Below, piece after piece: positions 20,826-27,497 of a DNA stretch of 64,000 bases. The stretch is taken from assembly GCA_963776285.1 (NCBI GenBank), contig CAVZLW010000003.1, positions 312,129-376,128 on the forward strand, read 5' to 3'. Source of the stretch: an uncultured Chloroflexia bacterium (GTDB lineage: Bacteria; Chloroflexota; Limnocylindria; Limnocylindrales; CSP1-4). The position numbers were made by a program, and so were the translations under genes. Below the pieces are notes generated by a model. The model worked only from the letters and a program-made list of their open reading frames with translations. It searched no databases and was not told where the DNA came from. Position 1 is the first letter of the stretch; every line of letters starts with the position of its first letter.

Positions 20826-21986
20826 TCAACCTCGGTGCGAGGCGCGGCGGCCAGCGCCGTTCCAGGCGGTCTGAGGGCGCCCGTTGTGGCGATCGCCCCA
20901 GGCTGAGCCGGACGACGAACCCGCGCCGGAGTGGCGATGGTGGTGGTTCGTGTCGGTGCTCTTCTCGCCGCACGAGCCGGAGCGGCCCCTGGCCACGAGG
21001 GCATAGGTGCCGTCCGCGTTCTTGACCAGGATCGCGGCAAACCCGACCTGCGTCGTGTCGAAGCGCACGACGAAGCCGTCGACGACCGTTCCGCGGGACT
21101 GCCCGACGCTGCCGCCGGCGCCCATCGACCAGCCGTGATGCCAGCCCTTGCCGCCCTGGGCCAGCCCGGCCTTGCCGGCGGGCCAGTCCCTGCTGGTTGC
21201 AGGCGCCCCGGTGGCCCCGTCGAACACGAGGTCGCCGGTCGCGGTCAGGTGATACCTGACCGAGACGGGGGTCCCGTCGCAGAGGTGGGCCGACCAGGTC
21301 CGAGCTCCGGCGAGGTCGGCGAGGGATCCCTGGAGCCGCTGGCGGTCCGCTCCGCTCAACGTGATCTTGAGGGATGCCGCCGAGTCCTTCGAATTGACGC
21401 TGACCGCGATGCGGAGGTGCTTGACGAACCCGGCGTGGGAGAAGGTGACGCCAGCCCGGGCCGACGCCGGCTGCTTGCCGCTCTTCGCCTTCGGCGCGTC
21501 GACGGCGGCGCTGACGCCCGGCGCCGCGTTCACGGCGCCGATCACGAGCGTCGGCTTGCCGGTGCCGTCGTCGCCGACGGTGTAGGCGACGGTCGAGGCC
21601 GTGCCGGTGCCGAAGACGTCGGCCTTCCAGGTCCCGCTTCCGACCAGGCCGGCGAGCGTCCTGGTCCGGGCGGCGATCGCGAGCTTCGAGCCGCCGGCCC
21701 TCACCTTGAGGGTCGCGCTTCCGTCGGCGTTGGAGAACTTCACGAGACCCGCGGAGGCCGAGGTCTGCGCGAGCGCGCCGGTCGGATTGAGGGTGACACC
21801 CGAGATGCCACCGGACGCGTCGAGCGTGACGCCGACGGTGAGCGAGGTGCCGAGCAGCGGCAGCGTCGCCTCCATGCCGCCCGTCTGGGCGATCGGTGCG
21901 TTGGTGGTGGCGGCCGCGGTGGCCGGTAGGACGATCATTCCCAGGGCCAGGATCCCGGCCGCGAGAACCGCGTGTCGTCGCTTCAT
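20826..21986 (-). CDS. secreted protein of unknown function (signal peptide; Gly/Thr/Ala-rich beta-rich body; His-rich C-terminal tail)
   Basis: ATG 21986 with GGAAGGAG upstream. MKRRHAVLAAGILALGMIVLPATAAA signal peptide. C-terminus ...TDTNHHHRHSG... Confidence 0.55.
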   Translation of the reverse strand: MKRRHAVLAAGILALGMIVLPATAAATTNAPIAQTGGMEATLPLLGTSLTVGVTLDASGGISGVTLNPTGALAQTSASAGLVKFSNADGSATLKVRAGGSKLAIAARTRTLAGLVGSGTWKADVFGTGTASTVAYTVGDDGTGKPTLVIGAVNAAPGVSAAVDAPKAKSGKQPASARAGVTFSHAGFVKHLRIAVSVNSKDSAASLKITLSGADRQRLQGSLADLAGARTWSAHLCDGTPVSVRYHLTATGDLVFDGATGAPATSRDWPAGKAGLAQGGKGWHHGWSMGAGGSVGQSRGTVVDGFVVRFDTTQVGFAAILVKNADGTYALVARGRSGSCGEKSTDTNHHHRHSGAGSSSGSAWGDRHNGRPQTAWNGAGRRASHRG

Positions 21987-22268
21987 CTGCCTCCTTCCGG
22001 GAGCGTCGTCCGCCGCGCGAGGGGCAGGCTCGACTCCGCGTGGTGCTGGCCCGGGCCCTCGGTGTGCGAGGCCCGGCTTCGGCGCGGTCGCCAGAGGGTA
22101 CCCCACATCCGCGACCTCGGCCCCGCAGCCGCCTGCCGCGCGGCCGCCTGCCGGCAGGCCTCCTTCCCCGCGAGTGCCGGGCGCCGTCCCGCCGCCCGGC
22201 TCGTCGCCGGGCTGTCCCGAGCCGCATAATCGGCCGCGACCATCCGCTCATCCGCAGCCGAGGATCCC

Positions 22269-23654
22269 GTGACGACCCCCAGCGCCGACCTCGAGGCCTT
22301 CCTGGCACGCACCGCCCAGCGTCGTCTGGACCGCTACCTGAACCTGCTGCGGATCCCCAGCATCAGCGGGATCCCCGGGCACGCCGCCGACTGCCGCCGG
22401 GCGGCCGAGCAGCTTGCCCGCGATCTTGCGTCAGTCGGCATGCAGAACGTCGAGGTCTGCGAGACCGGCGGACACCCGATCGTGTACGCCGACTGGCTCC
22501 ACGCCGAGGGTTCGCCGACCGTCCTGCTGTACGGGCACTACGACGTGCAGCCCGTCGATCCCCTCGACGAGTGGGAGGCCGCGCCGTTCGAGCCGATCGT
22601 GCGCGACGGGCGCGTGCTGGCGCGCGGGGCTTCCGACGACAAGTCGAACATCGCCATCGCCGTCGCGGCCGCGGAGGCCGTCCTTGCGACGAGCGGGCGC
22701 CTGCCCGTCAACCTCAAGCTTGTCTTCGAGGGCGAGGAGGAGTCCAGCTCGGTCCACCTGGACCCGTGGCTCGCGACGAACGCGGGACGCCTCGGCGCCG
22801 ACGTCGCGCTGGTGGCGGACTCGGGCTTCTTCGAGGGAAACGTCCCCGCCATCACGGTCGGGCTGCGGGGAATCTGCGCCGCCGAGATCCACGTCCGCGG
22901 GCCATTCCAGGACGTCCACTCCGGCGTCCACGGCGGGATGATCGACAACCCGATCAACGCGCTCGCGACGATCATCGCGGCGCTCAAGGGCCCCGACGGC
23001 CGGATCCGCATTCCGGGCTTTTACGACGACGTCGTCAGCCTGTCCGATGCCGACCGCGAGGAGCTCGCGGCTCTGCCTTTCGACGAGGAGGCGTACCGCG
23101 CCGGCCTCGACGTTCCGGCCCTGGCCGGAGAGACGGGCTGGACGACCCTGGAGCGCCGCGGGGCCCGCCCCACCTTCGACGTGAACGGGATCTGGGGCGG
23201 ATTCCAGGGCGAGGGAAGCAAGACGATCATCCCCGGGCGAGCGTCCGCCAAGGTGACCTGCCGGCTCGTCGCGGACCAGGACCCCGATCGGATCTTCGGC
23301 CTCCTCAGGGACCACGTCCTCGCGATCGCCCCGCCCGGCGTCCGCGTCGATGTCGTCTCCCTGGGCGGAGGGCGTCCGATGCTGACGCCCACGGACAGCC
23401 CGGCCTCGCGCGCCTTCGCGCGGGCGCTCGAGGCGACCTTCGGCCGGGCCCCGGTGTATGTCCGCGAGGGAGGCTCGATCCCCGTGGCGGCCAGCTTCGC
23501 CTCCATCGTGGGCCTCCCCGTGACGGTCGTGGGGTTCATGCCGCCGAACGGCAGCTTCCATGCCCCGAACGAGTGGATGGACCTCGCCAACTTCGAGGGC
23601 GGCATCCGCACGCTGGTGCTCTTCTTCGAGGAGTTCGCGGCCAGCGCCGCCTGA
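22269..23654 (+). CDS. M20-family dipeptidase (ArgE/DapE/ACY1/CPG2-like)
   Basis: GTG 22269. ...LLYGHYDVQP..., ...ARGASDDKSNIA..., ...FEGEEE... metal-ligand motifs of M20A peptidases. Confidence 0.85.
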   Translation: MTTPSADLEAFLARTAQRRLDRYLNLLRIPSISGIPGHAADCRRAAEQLARDLASVGMQNVEVCETGGHPIVYADWLHAEGSPTVLLYGHYDVQPVDPLDEWEAAPFEPIVRDGRVLARGASDDKSNIAIAVAAAEAVLATSGRLPVNLKLVFEGEEESSSVHLDPWLATNAGRLGADVALVADSGFFEGNVPAITVGLRGICAAEIHVRGPFQDVHSGVHGGMIDNPINALATIIAALKGPDGRIRIPGFYDDVVSLSDADREELAALPFDEEAYRAGLDVPALAGETGWTTLERRGARPTFDVNGIWGGFQGEGSKTIIPGRASAKVTCRLVADQDPDRIFGLLRDHVLAIAPPGVRVDVVSLGGGRPMLTPTDSPASRAFARALEATFGRAPVYVREGGSIPVAASFASIVGLPVTVVGFMPPNGSFHAPNEWMDLANFEGGIRTLVLFFEEFAASAA

Positions 23655-23791
23655 GGGCCCGGCCCCTCCGAGCGGGCGGCCGGGTGGGCGCGGATGGTAC
23701 TCCGGTAGGGTGTTCGGCGCCCGCCCGGGTGCTAGGATCCCGGTGCGGGGGCCTGCCCCGTCGTCCGCCACGCCAGGGAGCGAGTGCACCC

Positions 23792-24880
23792 GTGAGCACC
23801 GACATCGAGAAGCCCGCCGCCCGCGGGCCGAAGACCCAGTGGCGTCTCGACGCCGACACCGGGAGCCTGGTGCCCCGTTCGGCGCTCGACGTCCTGGTCA
23901 ACCTCAACGACCGGATCACGTCCGGCGACCTTGCCGACTACCAGGCGATCCCGCTCGGCTTCACGCCGCTCGACAAGACGATCGGCACGGGCCTCCGACC
24001 CGGCGAGCTACTGCTCATCGGCGGTGCGCAGGGAACGGGCAAGACGACGATGGCCCTCCAGATGGCGCGCAACGTCGCCTCGGGCGGCCAGGCCAACGTC
24101 CTCTACATCTGCTTCGAGCACGAGGAGCACTACCTCCTCAATCGGCTGATCGCCATGGAGTCGGCGCTGGCCCACCTGCCGCACAAGACGGGTGCGATCA
24201 AGATCCAGGACGTGCGCCGCGAGATCCTCGGCTCCTGGGTCGCCGAGGGGCAGGGGGGCGTCGGCCCGCAGCTGGCGGCGAACCCACGGCTGCGCCCCAG
24301 CCTCGACCGGATCGGACGCTACGGCCAGAACCTGTTCCTCATGCGCGGGACCCAGACGGCGAGCACGGTGGACAACATCCGGAAGCTCGTCCAGCTGCAC
24401 AAGGACCTCTCGGGCGGGCGCCAGCTGATGGTCTTCGTGGACTACCTCCAGAAGGTGCCGATGATCCCGGAGCCGAGCACGGAGACGGAGAAGGTCACCA
24501 TCGTGGTCAACGGCCTCAAGGACATCGCGCTCGCCGAGCAGGTCGGCATGGTCGCGATCGTGGCCGCCGACAAGGAGGGGCTGAAGGCGTCGCGCCTGCG
24601 CAACCACCACCTGCGCGGCTCGTCGGCCATCAACTACGAAGCCGACATCATCCTGATCATGAACGAGAAGTACCACATCGTCGCCAAGGTCAACATCGAG
24701 TTCAACCCGTACCAGGCGCAGCGCTTCCGCGACTGGGTGGTGGTGTCCGTCGAGAAGAACCGCGGGGGCCAGGACAACGTGGACCTGGAGTTCGAGAAGC
24801 ACTTCGAGTTCTCGTGCTTCGATCCGAGCGGCCGGACCGTGCAGGAGAAGCTCATCGAGGAGCGGCTCTACAACGACTGA
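23792..24880 (+). CDS. stand-alone DnaB-helicase C-terminal-domain (RecA-fold) ATPase, about 360 aa, with no DnaB N-terminal domain
   Basis: GTG 23792 with GGGAG upstream. ...GFTPLDKTIGTGLRPGELLLIGGAQGTGKTTMALQMA... (DnaB-C Walker A), ...MVFVDYLQK... (Walker B). Confidence 0.7.
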   Translation: MSTDIEKPAARGPKTQWRLDADTGSLVPRSALDVLVNLNDRITSGDLADYQAIPLGFTPLDKTIGTGLRPGELLLIGGAQGTGKTTMALQMARNVASGGQANVLYICFEHEEHYLLNRLIAMESALAHLPHKTGAIKIQDVRREILGSWVAEGQGGVGPQLAANPRLRPSLDRIGRYGQNLFLMRGTQTASTVDNIRKLVQLHKDLSGGRQLMVFVDYLQKVPMIPEPSTETEKVTIVVNGLKDIALAEQVGMVAIVAADKEGLKASRLRNHHLRGSSAINYEADIILIMNEKYHIVAKVNIEFNPYQAQRFRDWVVVSVEKNRGGQDNVDLEFEKHFEFSCFDPSGRTVQEKLIEERLYND

Positions 24881-24956
24881 GGGCCTGTATATGAAATGGC
24901 CACCCCAGGCCAAGTGCGATCCAACCATCGAAGGGTTGGTACGCGAAGGCCGAGGA

Positions 24957-25958
24957 CTACGTGCGGAGGCGGCGGAGTATCACCTCGAAACCAACGAGGT
25001 CGTAGCCGATGGCGCGACCTAGCCGAAGGTGGAGAACGGGCAAGATCTTCTGGCGGACTACGGAGTCTCGTTCCGCAAGCCGACCAAGCGAGGATCCCAA
25101 GTCAACGGCTCGAAAGCGGTCTCGCTCCTGTTCGAGCATTTCGATCAGGCGGTCCAAGGAGGCACCATCACCGAGGTCAGCGAGCGAGCATGCAGCCTTT
25201 GTTCGGACGCTCGGATCGGGATCGCTCAGGCGCTCGCGCAGCGCCTCGAGGATGGGGGCGGTCGGCTTCGAGCCACCGAGCAAGGACGCGGCCTCGGCTC
25301 GGCGATCCGGTCGCGCGTCGTTGAGGCGGGCCAGGTTGGCTTCGGTCCGCTTCGGTCCCTGTGCCGGCCGGACTTCCTCGTCGCGCCCGTGCATCCACTC
25401 CCGCGCCTTCTCCACGCGAGCCGTGAACTCCTGCTGCTGCTCGATGGTGCCGTCAACCGCGTTCATCAGGACGCCGACCTCGTCGAGTTCGACCCACGTC
25501 CATCCGCGCTGCTGCAAGAACTTGGCGTCCAGCATCACCCGCTCCGTCGCATGGTGCTCGATCGCAGGAAGCCCCACGGTCAGAAGTGCCGTTCGGACTT
25601 CCTCCGCTAGGGGGATGAGGCTGGCATCCGTGGCGTCACTCCTGATCTCCCACCAGAGGTCGCGACCGGCAACCAACTCGCCCAGCCGTGTGCGCCACTG
25701 GCACTCAACCTCGTGCGGGGGCCGGTTCGGGTCCTTCCCGCGGGACTCCAGGACGATCGCCGATGCCGACCCCAGGTTGATCGTGAAGGTGGCGCGCTCC
25801 GCGGAGTCCCACTGGCTCCGCTGCATGTTCACCACGCCCCAGTTTCGGTCGAGAAGGCGGTGAAACGTCTGACCCGAACCCTTGTAGCCCGCTTCACGGA
25901 GGGCTGGGGCGATGTGCTCCCGCAACCACACGGCCAGGATCTGCTGCGCGGTGTCCAC
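24957..25958 (-). CDS. DUF4304-domain protein with C-terminal HEAT/PBS-lyase-like repeats (passenger gene inside the IS-like element)
   Basis: N-terminus ...REAGYKGSGQTFHRLLDRNWGVVNMQRSQWDSAERATFTINLG... matches the DUF4304 signature. C-terminus ...LSDPDPSVRTKAACSLADLGDGASLDRLIEMLEQ... is HEAT-like. Confidence 0.6.
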   Translation of the reverse strand: MDTAQQILAVWLREHIAPALREAGYKGSGQTFHRLLDRNWGVVNMQRSQWDSAERATFTINLGSASAIVLESRGKDPNRPPHEVECQWRTRLGELVAGRDLWWEIRSDATDASLIPLAEEVRTALLTVGLPAIEHHATERVMLDAKFLQQRGWTWVELDEVGVLMNAVDGTIEQQQEFTARVEKAREWMHGRDEEVRPAQGPKRTEANLARLNDARPDRRAEAASLLGGSKPTAPILEALRERLSDPDPSVRTKAACSLADLGDGASLDRLIEMLEQERDRFRAVDLGSSLGRLAERDSVVRQKILPVLHLRLGRAIGYDLVGFEVILRRLRT

Positions 25959-26037
25959 GGATCCGATGCTACGGCACGGCGATCAGACCGGCGCGGCAAC
26001 CTAGCCTCGCCGAGAACGAAAGGCGATGCCGCCTCGG

Positions 26038-26808
26038 CTACACCCGCCCGAGCATGTAGCCGACACAGGCGACTTCAAGCCAGGCACGAGCGCTCTCCGC
26101 GGATCCCTCGAAGCAGCGAGACAGCCTGCGCCAGCGACCAAGTTGCGCGAAGGTCGTTTCGACCCGCCAGACCAGCGGGAGCGGCTTGAACCCGACCGTC
26201 CCGGGAGCGCGCGACCTGACCTGGAAGGACGCCGCGTTGTGGCGGCGGGCGGCGGTGTCGAGGCCCTTGTACCCGCCATCCGCGAGCACGAGCGAGACGC
26301 GGGACATGCCCGGCAGGACCTGGCGGAGGAGCGTCCGCCCGGCCGTGATGTCGGCCGGCCGGGCCGAGTCCACGCGCGCCGCGATCGGCAATCCGAGCCG
26401 CTCAACGAGGATCGTTCGTTTCGATCCGTTTGTCCGGCCGCCGCGACCGCCTGCCTCGTGGAACGTTGGTCCGGCTCGACCACCTCGCACGGTCTGCGCG
26501 TCGATCACCACCATCGAAGGCAACGCCTCGCGTGAGTGCTTGACCCGGATGTGTCCGGCCAAGAGGGTCATCGCCCGCGCCCAGACGCCGTTGTCGCGCC
26601 ACCGACACCACTGCTGCCAGACAGCACCCCAGGGCCCGAATCGTTCAGGCAGGTAGCGCCACTGACACCCGGTCCGCGCGAGGAAGAGCATGGCATCGAC
26701 CATCTGCCGCCGGTCGGTCGTTGCCGGCGCACCTCGTCGGCCGGGTGGATCGAACAGGTGCGAGACGAGATTCCAGCCCTCGTTGGTGATCGCAATGGAG
26801 TAGGCCAT
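26038..26808 (-). CDS. IS5-family transposase (DUF4096 N-terminal + DDE_Tnp_1 catalytic domain; IS1031/IS427-group-like)
   Basis: ATG 26808. ...EGWNLVSHLFDPP...DRRQMVDAMLFLARTGCQWRYLPERFGPWGAVWQQWCRWRDNGVW... is the IS5-family N-terminal signature. Single ORF with no frameshift. Confidence 0.8.
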   Translation of the reverse strand: MAYSIAITNEGWNLVSHLFDPPGRRGAPATTDRRQMVDAMLFLARTGCQWRYLPERFGPWGAVWQQWCRWRDNGVWARAMTLLAGHIRVKHSREALPSMVVIDAQTVRGGRAGPTFHEAGGRGGRTNGSKRTILVERLGLPIAARVDSARPADITAGRTLLRQVLPGMSRVSLVLADGGYKGLDTAARRHNAASFQVRSRAPGTVGFKPLPLVWRVETTFAQLGRWRRLSRCFEGSAESARAWLEVACVGYMLGRV

Positions 26809-26972
26809 GGATCGAGCGTGCGGTCCGGAGCCCCCTCGCGCAAGGCCCCATCGTGACCAATCGAGCACGAACTTTCATACACAGGGCCTGAGCGGCGGGT
26901 CCGCCCGGCGGCCGGATGGCGCTCCCGGCAGCGAGGGTTCCCGGCCCGCGCCGGGTGCCGTATCGTTGGCGC

Positions 26973-27497
26973 ATGAGCATCGAGCTTCGGGCCGCCTTTC
27001 CCGACATCGTCGAGATCGTGGTCGAGATCCCCCGCGGCAGCCGCAACAAGTACGAGTTCGATGAGGAAGCCGGCGTCTTCCGGCTCAACCGGGTCCTCTC
27101 CTCGGCCGTCTTCTACAACTTCGACTACGGCTTCATCGAGGGAACGCGGGCCGACGACGGCGACCACACCGATGCCCTGCTGGTGATCGACGAGCCGACA
27201 TTCACGGGCTGCCACGTGTGGGGCCGCCCGATCGGTGGCCTCGAGATGCGCGACGAGATGGGCTTCGACTTCAAGGTCCTGTGCGTCGCCCTCGGGGACC
27301 CGCACCAGTCCCACATCGAGCGCCTCGAGCAGGCGCGGCCGCACCGCCTCGTCGAGATCGAGCACTTCTTCGAAACGTACAAGATGCTGGAGAACAAGGC
27401 CACCGAGGTCGTCGGCTGGCGCGAGCGGGAGCGCGCCCACGAGGTCCTTCGCGCCGACCGCGCGGCGTGGCACCGGGAGCGGGCCGACGGCCGCTGA
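26973..27497 (+). CDS. ppa: inorganic pyrophosphatase
   Basis: ATG 26973. ...EIPRGSRNKYEFDEEAGVFRLNRVL..., ...DGDHTDALLV... family-I PPase motifs. Confidence 0.9.
   Translation: MSIELRAAFPDIVEIVVEIPRGSRNKYEFDEEAGVFRLNRVLSSAVFYNFDYGFIEGTRADDGDHTDALLVIDEPTFTGCHVWGRPIGGLEMRDEMGFDFKVLCVALGDPHQSHIERLEQARPHRLVEIEHFFETYKMLENKATEVVGWRERERAHEVLRADRAAWHRERADGR

Follow-up and report, generated by a model that had tools for sequence, protein, structure and literature searches.

The window considered here is a stretch of 64,000 nucleotides (nt) from an uncultured Chloroflexia bacterium of the Limnocylindria (contig CAVZLW010000003.1, positions 312,129 to 376,128). Between the gene for a DnaB_C-like AAA ATPase and ppa, the gene for inorganic pyrophosphatase, it holds an element of 2008 bp (window 24881-26888) that forms a single transposable unit. 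Two genes lie within the element, both on the minus strand: a single intact open reading frame (ORF) for an IS5-family DDE transposase of 256 amino acids (26038..26808), and a gene with a GTG start for a 333-amino-acid protein made up of a DUF4304 domain and HEAT repeats (24957..25958; Pfam DUF4304 2e-18, HEAT_2 8e-12), called the cargo gene in what follows. An earlier reading made from the letters alone, here the sequence-only reading, had taken the pair for an insertion sequence (IS) with a passenger gene. Related loci bear this out, with the same ends around a different cargo in one, the same cargo between homologous ends in another, and intact duplications around further cargo-bearing relatives. 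The element is very probably a transporter IS (tIS) of the IS5 family that moves by cut-and-paste as one unit. By kind, the IS5-family tIS is already known; the cargo-bearing element itself is new.

The ends of the element are short inverted repeats. The left end (24881-24896) reads GGGCCTGTATATGAAA, and the reverse complement of the right end (26873-26888) reads GGCCCTGTGTATGAAA; the two match at 14 of 16 positions, as had been noticed from the letters, or at 14 of 17 when one extra base is taken in. The repeat distal to the transposase comprises 17 nt (GGGCCTGTATATGAAAT) and about 4 nt of distal-specific conserved sequence (24881..24901, plus strand), and the proximal repeat occupies 26872..26888 on the minus strand (reverse complement GGCCCTGTGTATGAAAG). 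Scored with an end profile, a weight matrix built solely on 44 ends that belong to related elements of other genomes, the distal end reaches 29.2 bits and the proximal end 22.5 bits. They are the two best matches in the window, the next best on either strand scoring 7.4 bits. A degenerate 16-mer with at most three mismatches finds just these two sites in 64 kb, against 0.17 expected. Immediately outside the repeats, copies of TGA (24878..24880 and 26889..26891) bracket all 2008 bp. These flanks belong to a palindromic CTGAG, so that an inverted-repeat search returns a 20-nt arm at 85%, and a duplication of up to 5 bp is formally possible. The relatives show it to be a 3-bp TNA duplication within a c/TNA/g target (slashes enclose the duplicated triplet), the G next to the right copy giving C/TGA/G here. 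The TNA-type duplication that the sequence-only reading had proposed is present on both sides and agrees with the target of the family.

The family assignments made from the letters also hold when the two proteins are compared with profile databases. The transposase carries DUF4096 and DDE_Tnp_1 (Pfam) and matches the NCBIfam equivalog NF033580, 'IS5 family transposase', with 183.3 bits (cutoff 110, E 5.8e-54, positions 3-257/258). In an alignment with nine relatives it is full length, with D103, D177 and E217 in invariant columns. Its ratio of nonsynonymous to synonymous substitution rates (dN/dS) against the closest IS copy, L050, is 0.019 at a dS of 0.39, indicating strong purifying selection. 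The IS5-type DDE transposase, the short terminal inverted repeats and the direct duplication that characterise the IS5 family are all present. Within the family, the IS1031 group is marked by a single ORF and a 3-bp duplication, and its border with the IS427 group is acknowledged as fuzzy (PMC2516522). The element has both features, in its 256-amino-acid ORF and its TNA duplication, and the IS1031-group label given earlier fits on that basis, with the same fuzziness; judged on these features, it resembles the IS1031/IS427 groups. Members of these groups (IS1031, IS1237, ISLxx6) share the combination of DUF4096 and DDE_Tnp_1 (NF033580) in a single ORF, and IS1237 duplicates TAA, a triplet of the same TNA type (PMC2516522). 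Cargo-less relatives of about 1.05 kb are in line with these groups, whereas the window element, at 2008 bp, has about twice the usual length owing to its cargo. Its ends begin GGG/GGC; ISfinder gives GAG as the IS1031 end. The nearest named elements, from plasmid records, belong to the ISAli1 and ISRtr4 families (37-38% amino acid identity), the best cultured match to the transposase is at 52% in Miltoncostaea oceani, and the element appears to be a new, previously unnamed IS from an uncultured lineage.

The limits of the unit and of its cargo are defined by two further loci. The first, L050 on a Joint Genome Institute (JGI) contig, has a core 91% identical in nucleotides to that of the window element, a total length of 1367 bp and a TCA duplication. 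Its proximal repeat is identical to that of the window and its distal repeat near-identical (window 24874-24901 and the L050 distal end share 90% identity), and its cargo differs, being an ORF of 131 amino acids on the opposite strand. Homology between the two elements ends 4 nt past the transposase stop codon (26034) and returns only in the last ∼21-29 nt. Break points of this kind place the boundary of IS core and cargo module at 26021..26034: homology to other IS copies stops between 26034 (L050) and 26021 (L031), and homology to a cargo homologue outside an IS context, L049, begins at ∼26023, where that to the IS copies ends. Divided at these points, the element consists of a core of ∼855 bp (26034-26888), with the 17-nt proximal repeat, a 63-nt leader conserved among close relatives (26809..26871, minus strand) and the transposase gene, and of a cargo module of ∼1.13 kb (24902-26033) holding one self-contained gene, the distal repeat block of ∼21 nt closing the element.

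The second locus, L007 (L007:85-1256; ENA ERZ27241287, k141_445421), holds the cargo gene, 93% identical in nucleotides, between homologous ends and without a transposase. Some 55 nt of the proximal end are followed by the cargo with its upstream spacer and then by the distal repeat. The flanking genes, which include a GerE-type regulator, are unrelated to those of the window, and the deletion junction falls at a short GCGAGG repeat that is found at both places in the window element. L007 is a transposase-less derivative of the same element and has the layout of a mobile insertion cassette (MIC). With its decayed repeats and no recognisable duplication, it is perhaps a relic that no longer moves and not an active MIC.

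These loci bear directly on a simpler account, in which an ordinary IS of 0.85-1.05 kb stands beside a resident DUF4304-HEAT gene, with the repeat at 24881 and its TGA mere coincidences. It is true that cargo-less relatives measure about 1.05 kb, that homologues of the cargo occur as normal chromosomal genes, and that a weak repeat-like sequence is found at 26050, near the transposase stop codon. The end at 24881, however, is the best of the 64 kb, and it bears a distal-specific signature common to L050, L009 and L012. The inner candidate reaches 7.4 bits and is coding sequence. No closer pair of repeats enclosing the transposase alone was found in the window with the end profile or with indel-tolerant patterns, nor was a repeat found between the transposase stop and the cargo, where the best inner match is again the one inside the transposase codons. 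The TGA duplication matches, and in L007 this gene again stands between these two ends, in another place. A further objection that the sequence-only reading had anticipated, relatives with the DUF4304 gene at this position and no IS, finds no counterpart either: 85%-identical relatives lack this gene at the locus and hold other genes there. The ordinary-IS account is largely refuted, and we consider it most improbable.

Base composition, the other feature by which the element had been thought to stand apart, holds in part. At 67.1% GC against 73.1% for the window it ranks among the ∼2% of 2-kb windows poorest in GC. The flanking host genes, however, are equally low (DnaB_C-like gene 66.7%, ppa 67.6%), which weakens the argument from low GC. 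The clear signal is the GC content of third codon positions (GC3), 0.80-0.82 in the two IS genes as opposed to 0.94-0.96 in the flanking host genes.

The cargo protein is modelled confidently by AlphaFold 2, with a predicted local distance difference test score of 92.8, as an N-terminal alpha/beta DUF4304 domain joined to a C-terminal HEAT-like solenoid. Foldseek comparison of this model with the Protein Data Bank retrieves generic or designed HEAT repeats only, and the protein has no NCBIfam match. A role in anti-phage defence finds no support: the PADLOC defence-protein models give no significant match, the one similarity, to a HEAT-ARM model of 1972 positions (E 1.5e-3, 14 bits), being of a generic HEAT kind. 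Our best guess is that the protein serves as a protein-binding scaffold. Its dN/dS against homologues is 0.16-0.30, and the two IS-embedded copies too differ in a way that indicates purifying selection.

Expression signals of the cargo gene lie close to its start codon. A -10-like hexamer, TAGCAT (25966..25971, minus strand), stands 7 nt upstream of the GTG inside a conserved block, GTGCCGTAGCATC, which alignment shows to be common to all cargo homologues, including those without a nearby IS. TAGCAT may therefore be the cargo's own promoter, which would yield a leaderless mRNA and make expression independent of the IS. Similar conserved blocks precede the cargo gene (window 25959-25978, minus strand) and ppa (26955-26975, plus strand), the former reading GTGCCGTAGCAT with 7 nt to the GTG and the latter GTGCCGTATCGT with 6 nt to the ATG; as a pair they look like a lineage-typical set of -10 regions for leaderless transcripts, with predicted starts at 25958 and 26973. 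Directly 3' of the cargo gene, a terminator-like hairpin (24897..24912, minus strand) runs with its T-rich tail into the distal repeat; such a hairpin is not above chance, with 1 found and 1.3 expected.

Full-length homologues of the cargo are rare, numbering only 14 in a collection of 5.8 billion proteins. Three of them (L001, L002 and L008; 76-79% identical) lie between a creatininase gene and a PhdYeFM/PIN toxin-antitoxin pair, and these loci have no transposase and no IS ends. The closer homologue of L049 (87%; Logan contig SRR33270656) has the 3' end of another gene upstream, and no IS core is found in the 111 nt available upstream of it. Where orthology would place the distal repeat (L049:1171-1187) stands a look-alike, GGGGCTGCAAATGGACT, which matches at 12 of 17 positions, scores 2.5 bits and is followed by TGA. 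L049 could be a copy in advanced decay, or else a locus near the state before capture. Taken with its relatives, the cargo gene appears to be a host-type gene outside the transposition machinery.

The opposite has to be considered, that the DUF4304-HEAT protein belongs to the IS in an accessory or regulatory capacity, for instance to regulate transposition or select targets. The gene does lie on the same strand as the transposase gene, 79 nt downstream of it, and the cargo of L031, an 82%-identical relative, has HEAT repeats too. Yet the L031 protein has no detectable sequence similarity to the cargo protein of the window, and the gene is absent from L050, whose core is 91% identical in nucleotides and whose transposase is under strong purifying selection, as it is from all 37 related transposase loci. 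Homologues without an IS persist in a conserved chromosomal context under purifying selection, and the promoter-like box of the gene is conserved outside the IS context. An accessory role is disfavoured, and we give it very little credence.

The element is one of a group. When species-representative genomes are searched with the transposase, 37 loci with 40-82% amino acid identity are found. Nearly all are in Chloroflexota metagenome-assembled genomes (MAGs) labelled Limnocylindria or 'uncultured Chloroflexia', and two others bear the label Actinomycetota/Propionibacteriales. Both ends could be defined for 26 elements, 14 cargo-bearing (1343-2089 bp) and 12 cargo-less (∼1.05 kb). All 26 have termini of the form GGGCCTGT(r)(n)(m)(y)GAA(w), their target being c/TNA/g; among the 18 with a perfect 3-bp duplication, the triplet is preceded by c in 15 cases and followed by g in 17. 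The duplicated triplet is TCA, TAA, TGA or TTA. Perfect TNA duplications surround 10 of the 14 cargo-bearing elements (P = 3e-4 against chance) and 8 of the 12 cargo-less ones, and the cargo-bearing relatives appear to transpose as units.

The extra DNA of these relatives always lies between the transposase stop codon and the distal repeat. Nearly all elements have one plausible ORF there, L010 having two small ones, and the cargos are unrelated to one another. Classed by Pfam matches or by the appearance of the ORF, the cargos comprise DUF4331 (L021), Cupin_2 (L026 and L028), SnoaL (L027), RibD_C (L029), HEAT_2 (L031), DUF2652 (L033, which has a TAA duplication), a weak HD match (L024), lipoprotein-like ORFs (L012 and L032) and membrane-like ORFs (L009 and L020). 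The HEAT cargo of L031 was tried as the same gene as the cargo of the window and rejected, as tblastn finds no similarity between them. The boundaries of the variable segment are sharp: in the window element, L050, L031, L009, L010, L011, L012 and L024 it starts 0-17 nt past the transposase stop and ends ∼17-22 nt from the tip of the element. Eight elements with cores at least 76% identical in nucleotides carry eight different cargos, and the cargo differs even at 91%. In two MAGs (L039:3920-6491 and L045:3886-6013) a truncated transposase is followed by an ORF of 497 amino acids and then by an IS-type end, and the flanking triplets do not match. From its N-terminal sequence the ORF looks like a prolyl-tRNA synthetase, and these two loci are probably IS remnants bracketing a housekeeping gene, not mobile units.

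How a host gene might come to lie inside such an element can be asked of its ends. One model of origin is a decayed composite transposon, in which the second of two IS copies is whittled down to its outer repeat and the first has lost its inner repeat. L033 fits this model, its distal end (L033:5582-5697) being ∼116 nt of inverted IS 5' end that includes the transposase start. So, perhaps, does the GGGCCTGTAGCCGAATTC subfamily, in which both ends are identical over 17-18 nt. A weak inner relic resembling the distal repeat in L024 (element position 870-882) and IS ends that stand alone or in excess near copies such as L011, L023 and L034 point the same way. The distal ends of the window subfamily speak against it. 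They share a 22-nt signature (..GAAATCGGCC-like), with ..GAAAT followed by GGCC/CGGCC in L050, L009 and L012, unlike the proximal ..GAAAGTTCG; the distal signature of the window element is found in L028 as well as in L009 and L012. Because this signature differs from the proximal one, the distal ends would not have been derived independently from inverted proximal ends. In addition, the window has no inner repeat relic between transposase and cargo, the L024 relic lies within chance (estimated p about 0.2-0.4), and the model requires two precise deletions, repeatedly, in many lineages. Composite decay is a possible origin, and we would not call it a probable one.

A second model is capture by end-skipping, of the ISEcp1, IS91 or ISCR type, in which the native distal end is ignored or lost and the next downstream end is used, dragging a neighbouring gene along. 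It accords with the close relatives, in all of which the variable DNA starts right at the stop codon of the transposase gene. It also accords with a repeat-like sequence in the last codons of the transposase gene: GAGCATGTAGCCGACAC (26050..26066, plus strand, in the C-terminal codons ..VGYMLG..) is the third best match to the end profile in the window, at 7.4 bits, and this IS-end-like sequence (GAGCATGTAGCCGAcAC), ∼10 nt before the transposase stop, scores 15.3 bits at the same site in L010 (L010:920-936, minus strand). Speculatively, this could be what is left of an ancestral distal repeat. Had that end overlapped the 3' end of the transposase gene, in an IS of ∼840-880 bp, all DNA past the stop codon would be acquired by definition, and an embedded relic would explain why variability begins at that codon. 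The look-alike with TGA at the distal-repeat position of the non-IS homologue L049 could be cited in support too, but at 2.5 bits it may equally belong to a decayed copy. More seriously, end-skipping predicts poor, idiosyncratic outer ends, whereas the outer ends here are excellent, conserved and co-vary with the transposase subfamily. We regard it as an unlikely origin. Composite decay and end-skipping both fall short of explaining a sharply bounded turnover of cargo.

The element can be set beside the systems already described. Both tIS and MICs are established concepts (PMC3129680, PMC9330008). The tIS, as the ISfinder group defines them, are IS copies with passenger genes unrelated to transposition (PMC3129680, PMC9330008). 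With them the window element has in common a single transposase gene, terminal inverted repeats, a duplication and a passenger inside the repeats, as well as the loss of the passenger only through transposition-independent events. It differs in that the exact element is seen once and that related elements carry almost each a different cargo within sharp boundaries. For such a pattern no IS5-family tIS description was found in a limited coverage of the literature, which is no proof of novelty. MICs consist of IS-type repeats around passenger genes without a transposase (PMC3129680); L007 has this layout, with the proximal end, the DUF4304-HEAT gene and the distal repeat, whereas the window element keeps its transposase.

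In ISEcp1 units and in IS91/ISCR elements, as in the window, a single transposase-bearing element mobilises a host gene downstream of the transposase. The window element has no native end between transposase and cargo, however; its outer end is a strong conserved repeat (29.2 bits), not a weak surrogate, and its enzyme is an IS5-type DDE transposase instead of the IS1380 or HUH enzymes of those systems. The mark of an ISEcp1-like unit, a retained native repeat combined with a weak outer surrogate, is thus not found in the window. Composite transposons likewise mobilise a host gene by IS ends on both sides, and L033 keeps a truncated, inverted second copy; on the distal side of the window element, by contrast, only ∼21 nt are IS-derived. 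As a present-day composite transposon the element was rejected, as two IS copies do not flank the cargo and the window has no second transposase or IS body.

The insertion site lies in a conserved neighbourhood, in which genes for FtsH, an M20 peptidase and the DnaB_C-like protein are followed by ppa, LigT and a PALP enzyme. The DnaB_C-like gene (23792..24880, plus strand; Pfam DnaB_C 6e-24) encodes 362 amino acids, and its TGA stop codon was the target of insertion. Homologues of the same length share 94% identity with it, and the ...TACAACGACTGA end is also present in two relatives, L046 and L047. A longer ORF of 994 amino acids ending at the same stop codon (window 21896-24880, plus strand) is a high-GC artefact: homologues set the real gene at 362 amino acids from 23792, and the upstream part of the long ORF overlaps the M20 peptidase gene (22269-23654). 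As the sequence-only reading had observed, the left TGA copy is this stop codon, and the ATG of ppa (26973) lies 81 nt past the right copy. A stop codon with C before it and G after it is a good c/TNA/g target, and its duplication regenerates the stop.

In relatives ∼85% identical in nucleotides, homology to the window breaks off precisely with the TGA (24880) and restarts at 26918 or 26952. Their interval between the DnaB_C-like gene and ppa (L046:4590-7344, L047:4590-7344 and the P0020 contig) is filled by other genes, a different set in each relative and ∼1.4 to 2.8 kb in extent: a 683-amino-acid spermine-synthase-like protein; a 357-amino-acid protease-like protein with an ORF of 147 amino acids; and an ORF of 331 amino acids without a Pfam match. 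No recognisable IS ends were found in the interval of these relatives. The 331-amino-acid ORF, on the minus strand of the P0020 contig, was considered as a cargo homologue and rejected, as it has no Pfam match and is absent among the homologues of the cargo. The interval appears to be a variable hotspot in this lineage. An empty site, which the sequence-only reading had suggested looking for as a single TGA, would read ...CTACAACGAC-TGA-GCGGCGGGTCC...; none was found in relatives, where the interval is occupied. A metagenome scan with the predicted 21-mer gave one match, on an unrelated low-GC contig, which was dismissed as chance.

Downstream of the element, ppa (26961..27497 with its -10-like box, plus strand; Pfam Pyrophosphatase 8e-46) appears to have kept its own expression signals. 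Its -10-like hexamer, TATCGT (26961-26966), stands 6 nt upstream of the ATG and outside the IS. The motif gtgccgtatcgtt..ATG is kept in L046 and L047, and both relatives have the gtgccgTATCGTtggcgcATG arrangement before ppa, which in the window lies 70-80 nt beyond the IS. The suggestion that ppa might now be driven from within the element finds no support: the conserved TATCGT is external to the IS, and the transposase gene is transcribed away from ppa. No promoter of sigma-70 consensus, outward ones included, was found in 24700-27100, a scan that is uninformative for a Chloroflexota genome. The insertion seems to have been benign, with the stop codon regenerated and the ppa promoter region left intact.

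Weighed as a whole, the evidence speaks for a tIS that moves as one unit. The gene for DUF4304 and HEAT_2 lies inside the repeats, is absent from L050 and is present without an IS at the loci of distant homologues. Transposition of the whole unit is indicated by the full-length duplication, by the second context in L007 and by the duplications of 10 of the 14 cargo-bearing relatives. Several observations count against this reading. L007 would show the unit in a second context but without a clean footprint of transposition, its repeats being decayed (12.6 and 17.7 bits) and its duplication not recognisable (TGA and CAA). The cargo of the window element is missing from all 37 related transposase loci of the species-representative genomes. 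The empty site was not recovered among the closest DnaB_C-like homologues (93-94% in amino acids, ∼85% in nucleotides). The 64-kb window holds no second copy of the element, transposase or IS body by blastn and tblastn, and the exact transposase and cargo proteins are on record from a single contig each, so that recent multi-copy transposition is without support; MAG assemblies collapse repeats. Finally, the route by which the cargo entered lacks an explanation.

With these reservations, a tIS would work in a simple manner. The transposase would bind both 17-nt ends, and because it binds both terminal repeats, all DNA between them would move together by the cut-and-paste reaction of IS5-family DDE enzymes, with the cargo carried along as a passenger. 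Insertion into the C/TNA/G target formed by the stop codon of the DnaB_C-like gene would have duplicated the TGA, leaving intact both the reading frame and stop of that gene and the core promoter region of ppa. Present-day transposition activity and the manner of cargo capture are both things that we infer.

Beyond the single element, the clade may be seen as a modular gene shuttle of Limnocylindria-type Chloroflexota, in which single host genes are swapped in a cargo slot faster than the transposase diverges, implying a dedicated mechanism of capture or exchange. The core, consisting of proximal repeat and transposase, and a distal repeat of ∼22 nt would bracket a slot that starts at the transposase stop codon. 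As a candidate mechanism, an ancestral distal end lying within the last codons of the transposase gene would be passed over and a portable outer end used instead. The alternative to a dedicated mechanism is a run of unconnected accidents, and we put the shuttle forward only tentatively, as a doubtful but specific proposal.

A single element of this kind is of little weight; the sharply bounded turnover of cargo across the clade is the more interesting point. Cargo-bearing forms are about as common as cargo-less ones in this IS clade, and the element of the window offers an entry point to the pattern. If it is true that the pattern reflects a mechanism, two short ends and one protein of 256 amino acids would make a tractable system for the transition from IS to transposon. 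It would also amount to a simple way, independent of integrons, for single genes to move inside a genome or from one genome to another, in an abundant but uncultured phylum of soil and freshwater.

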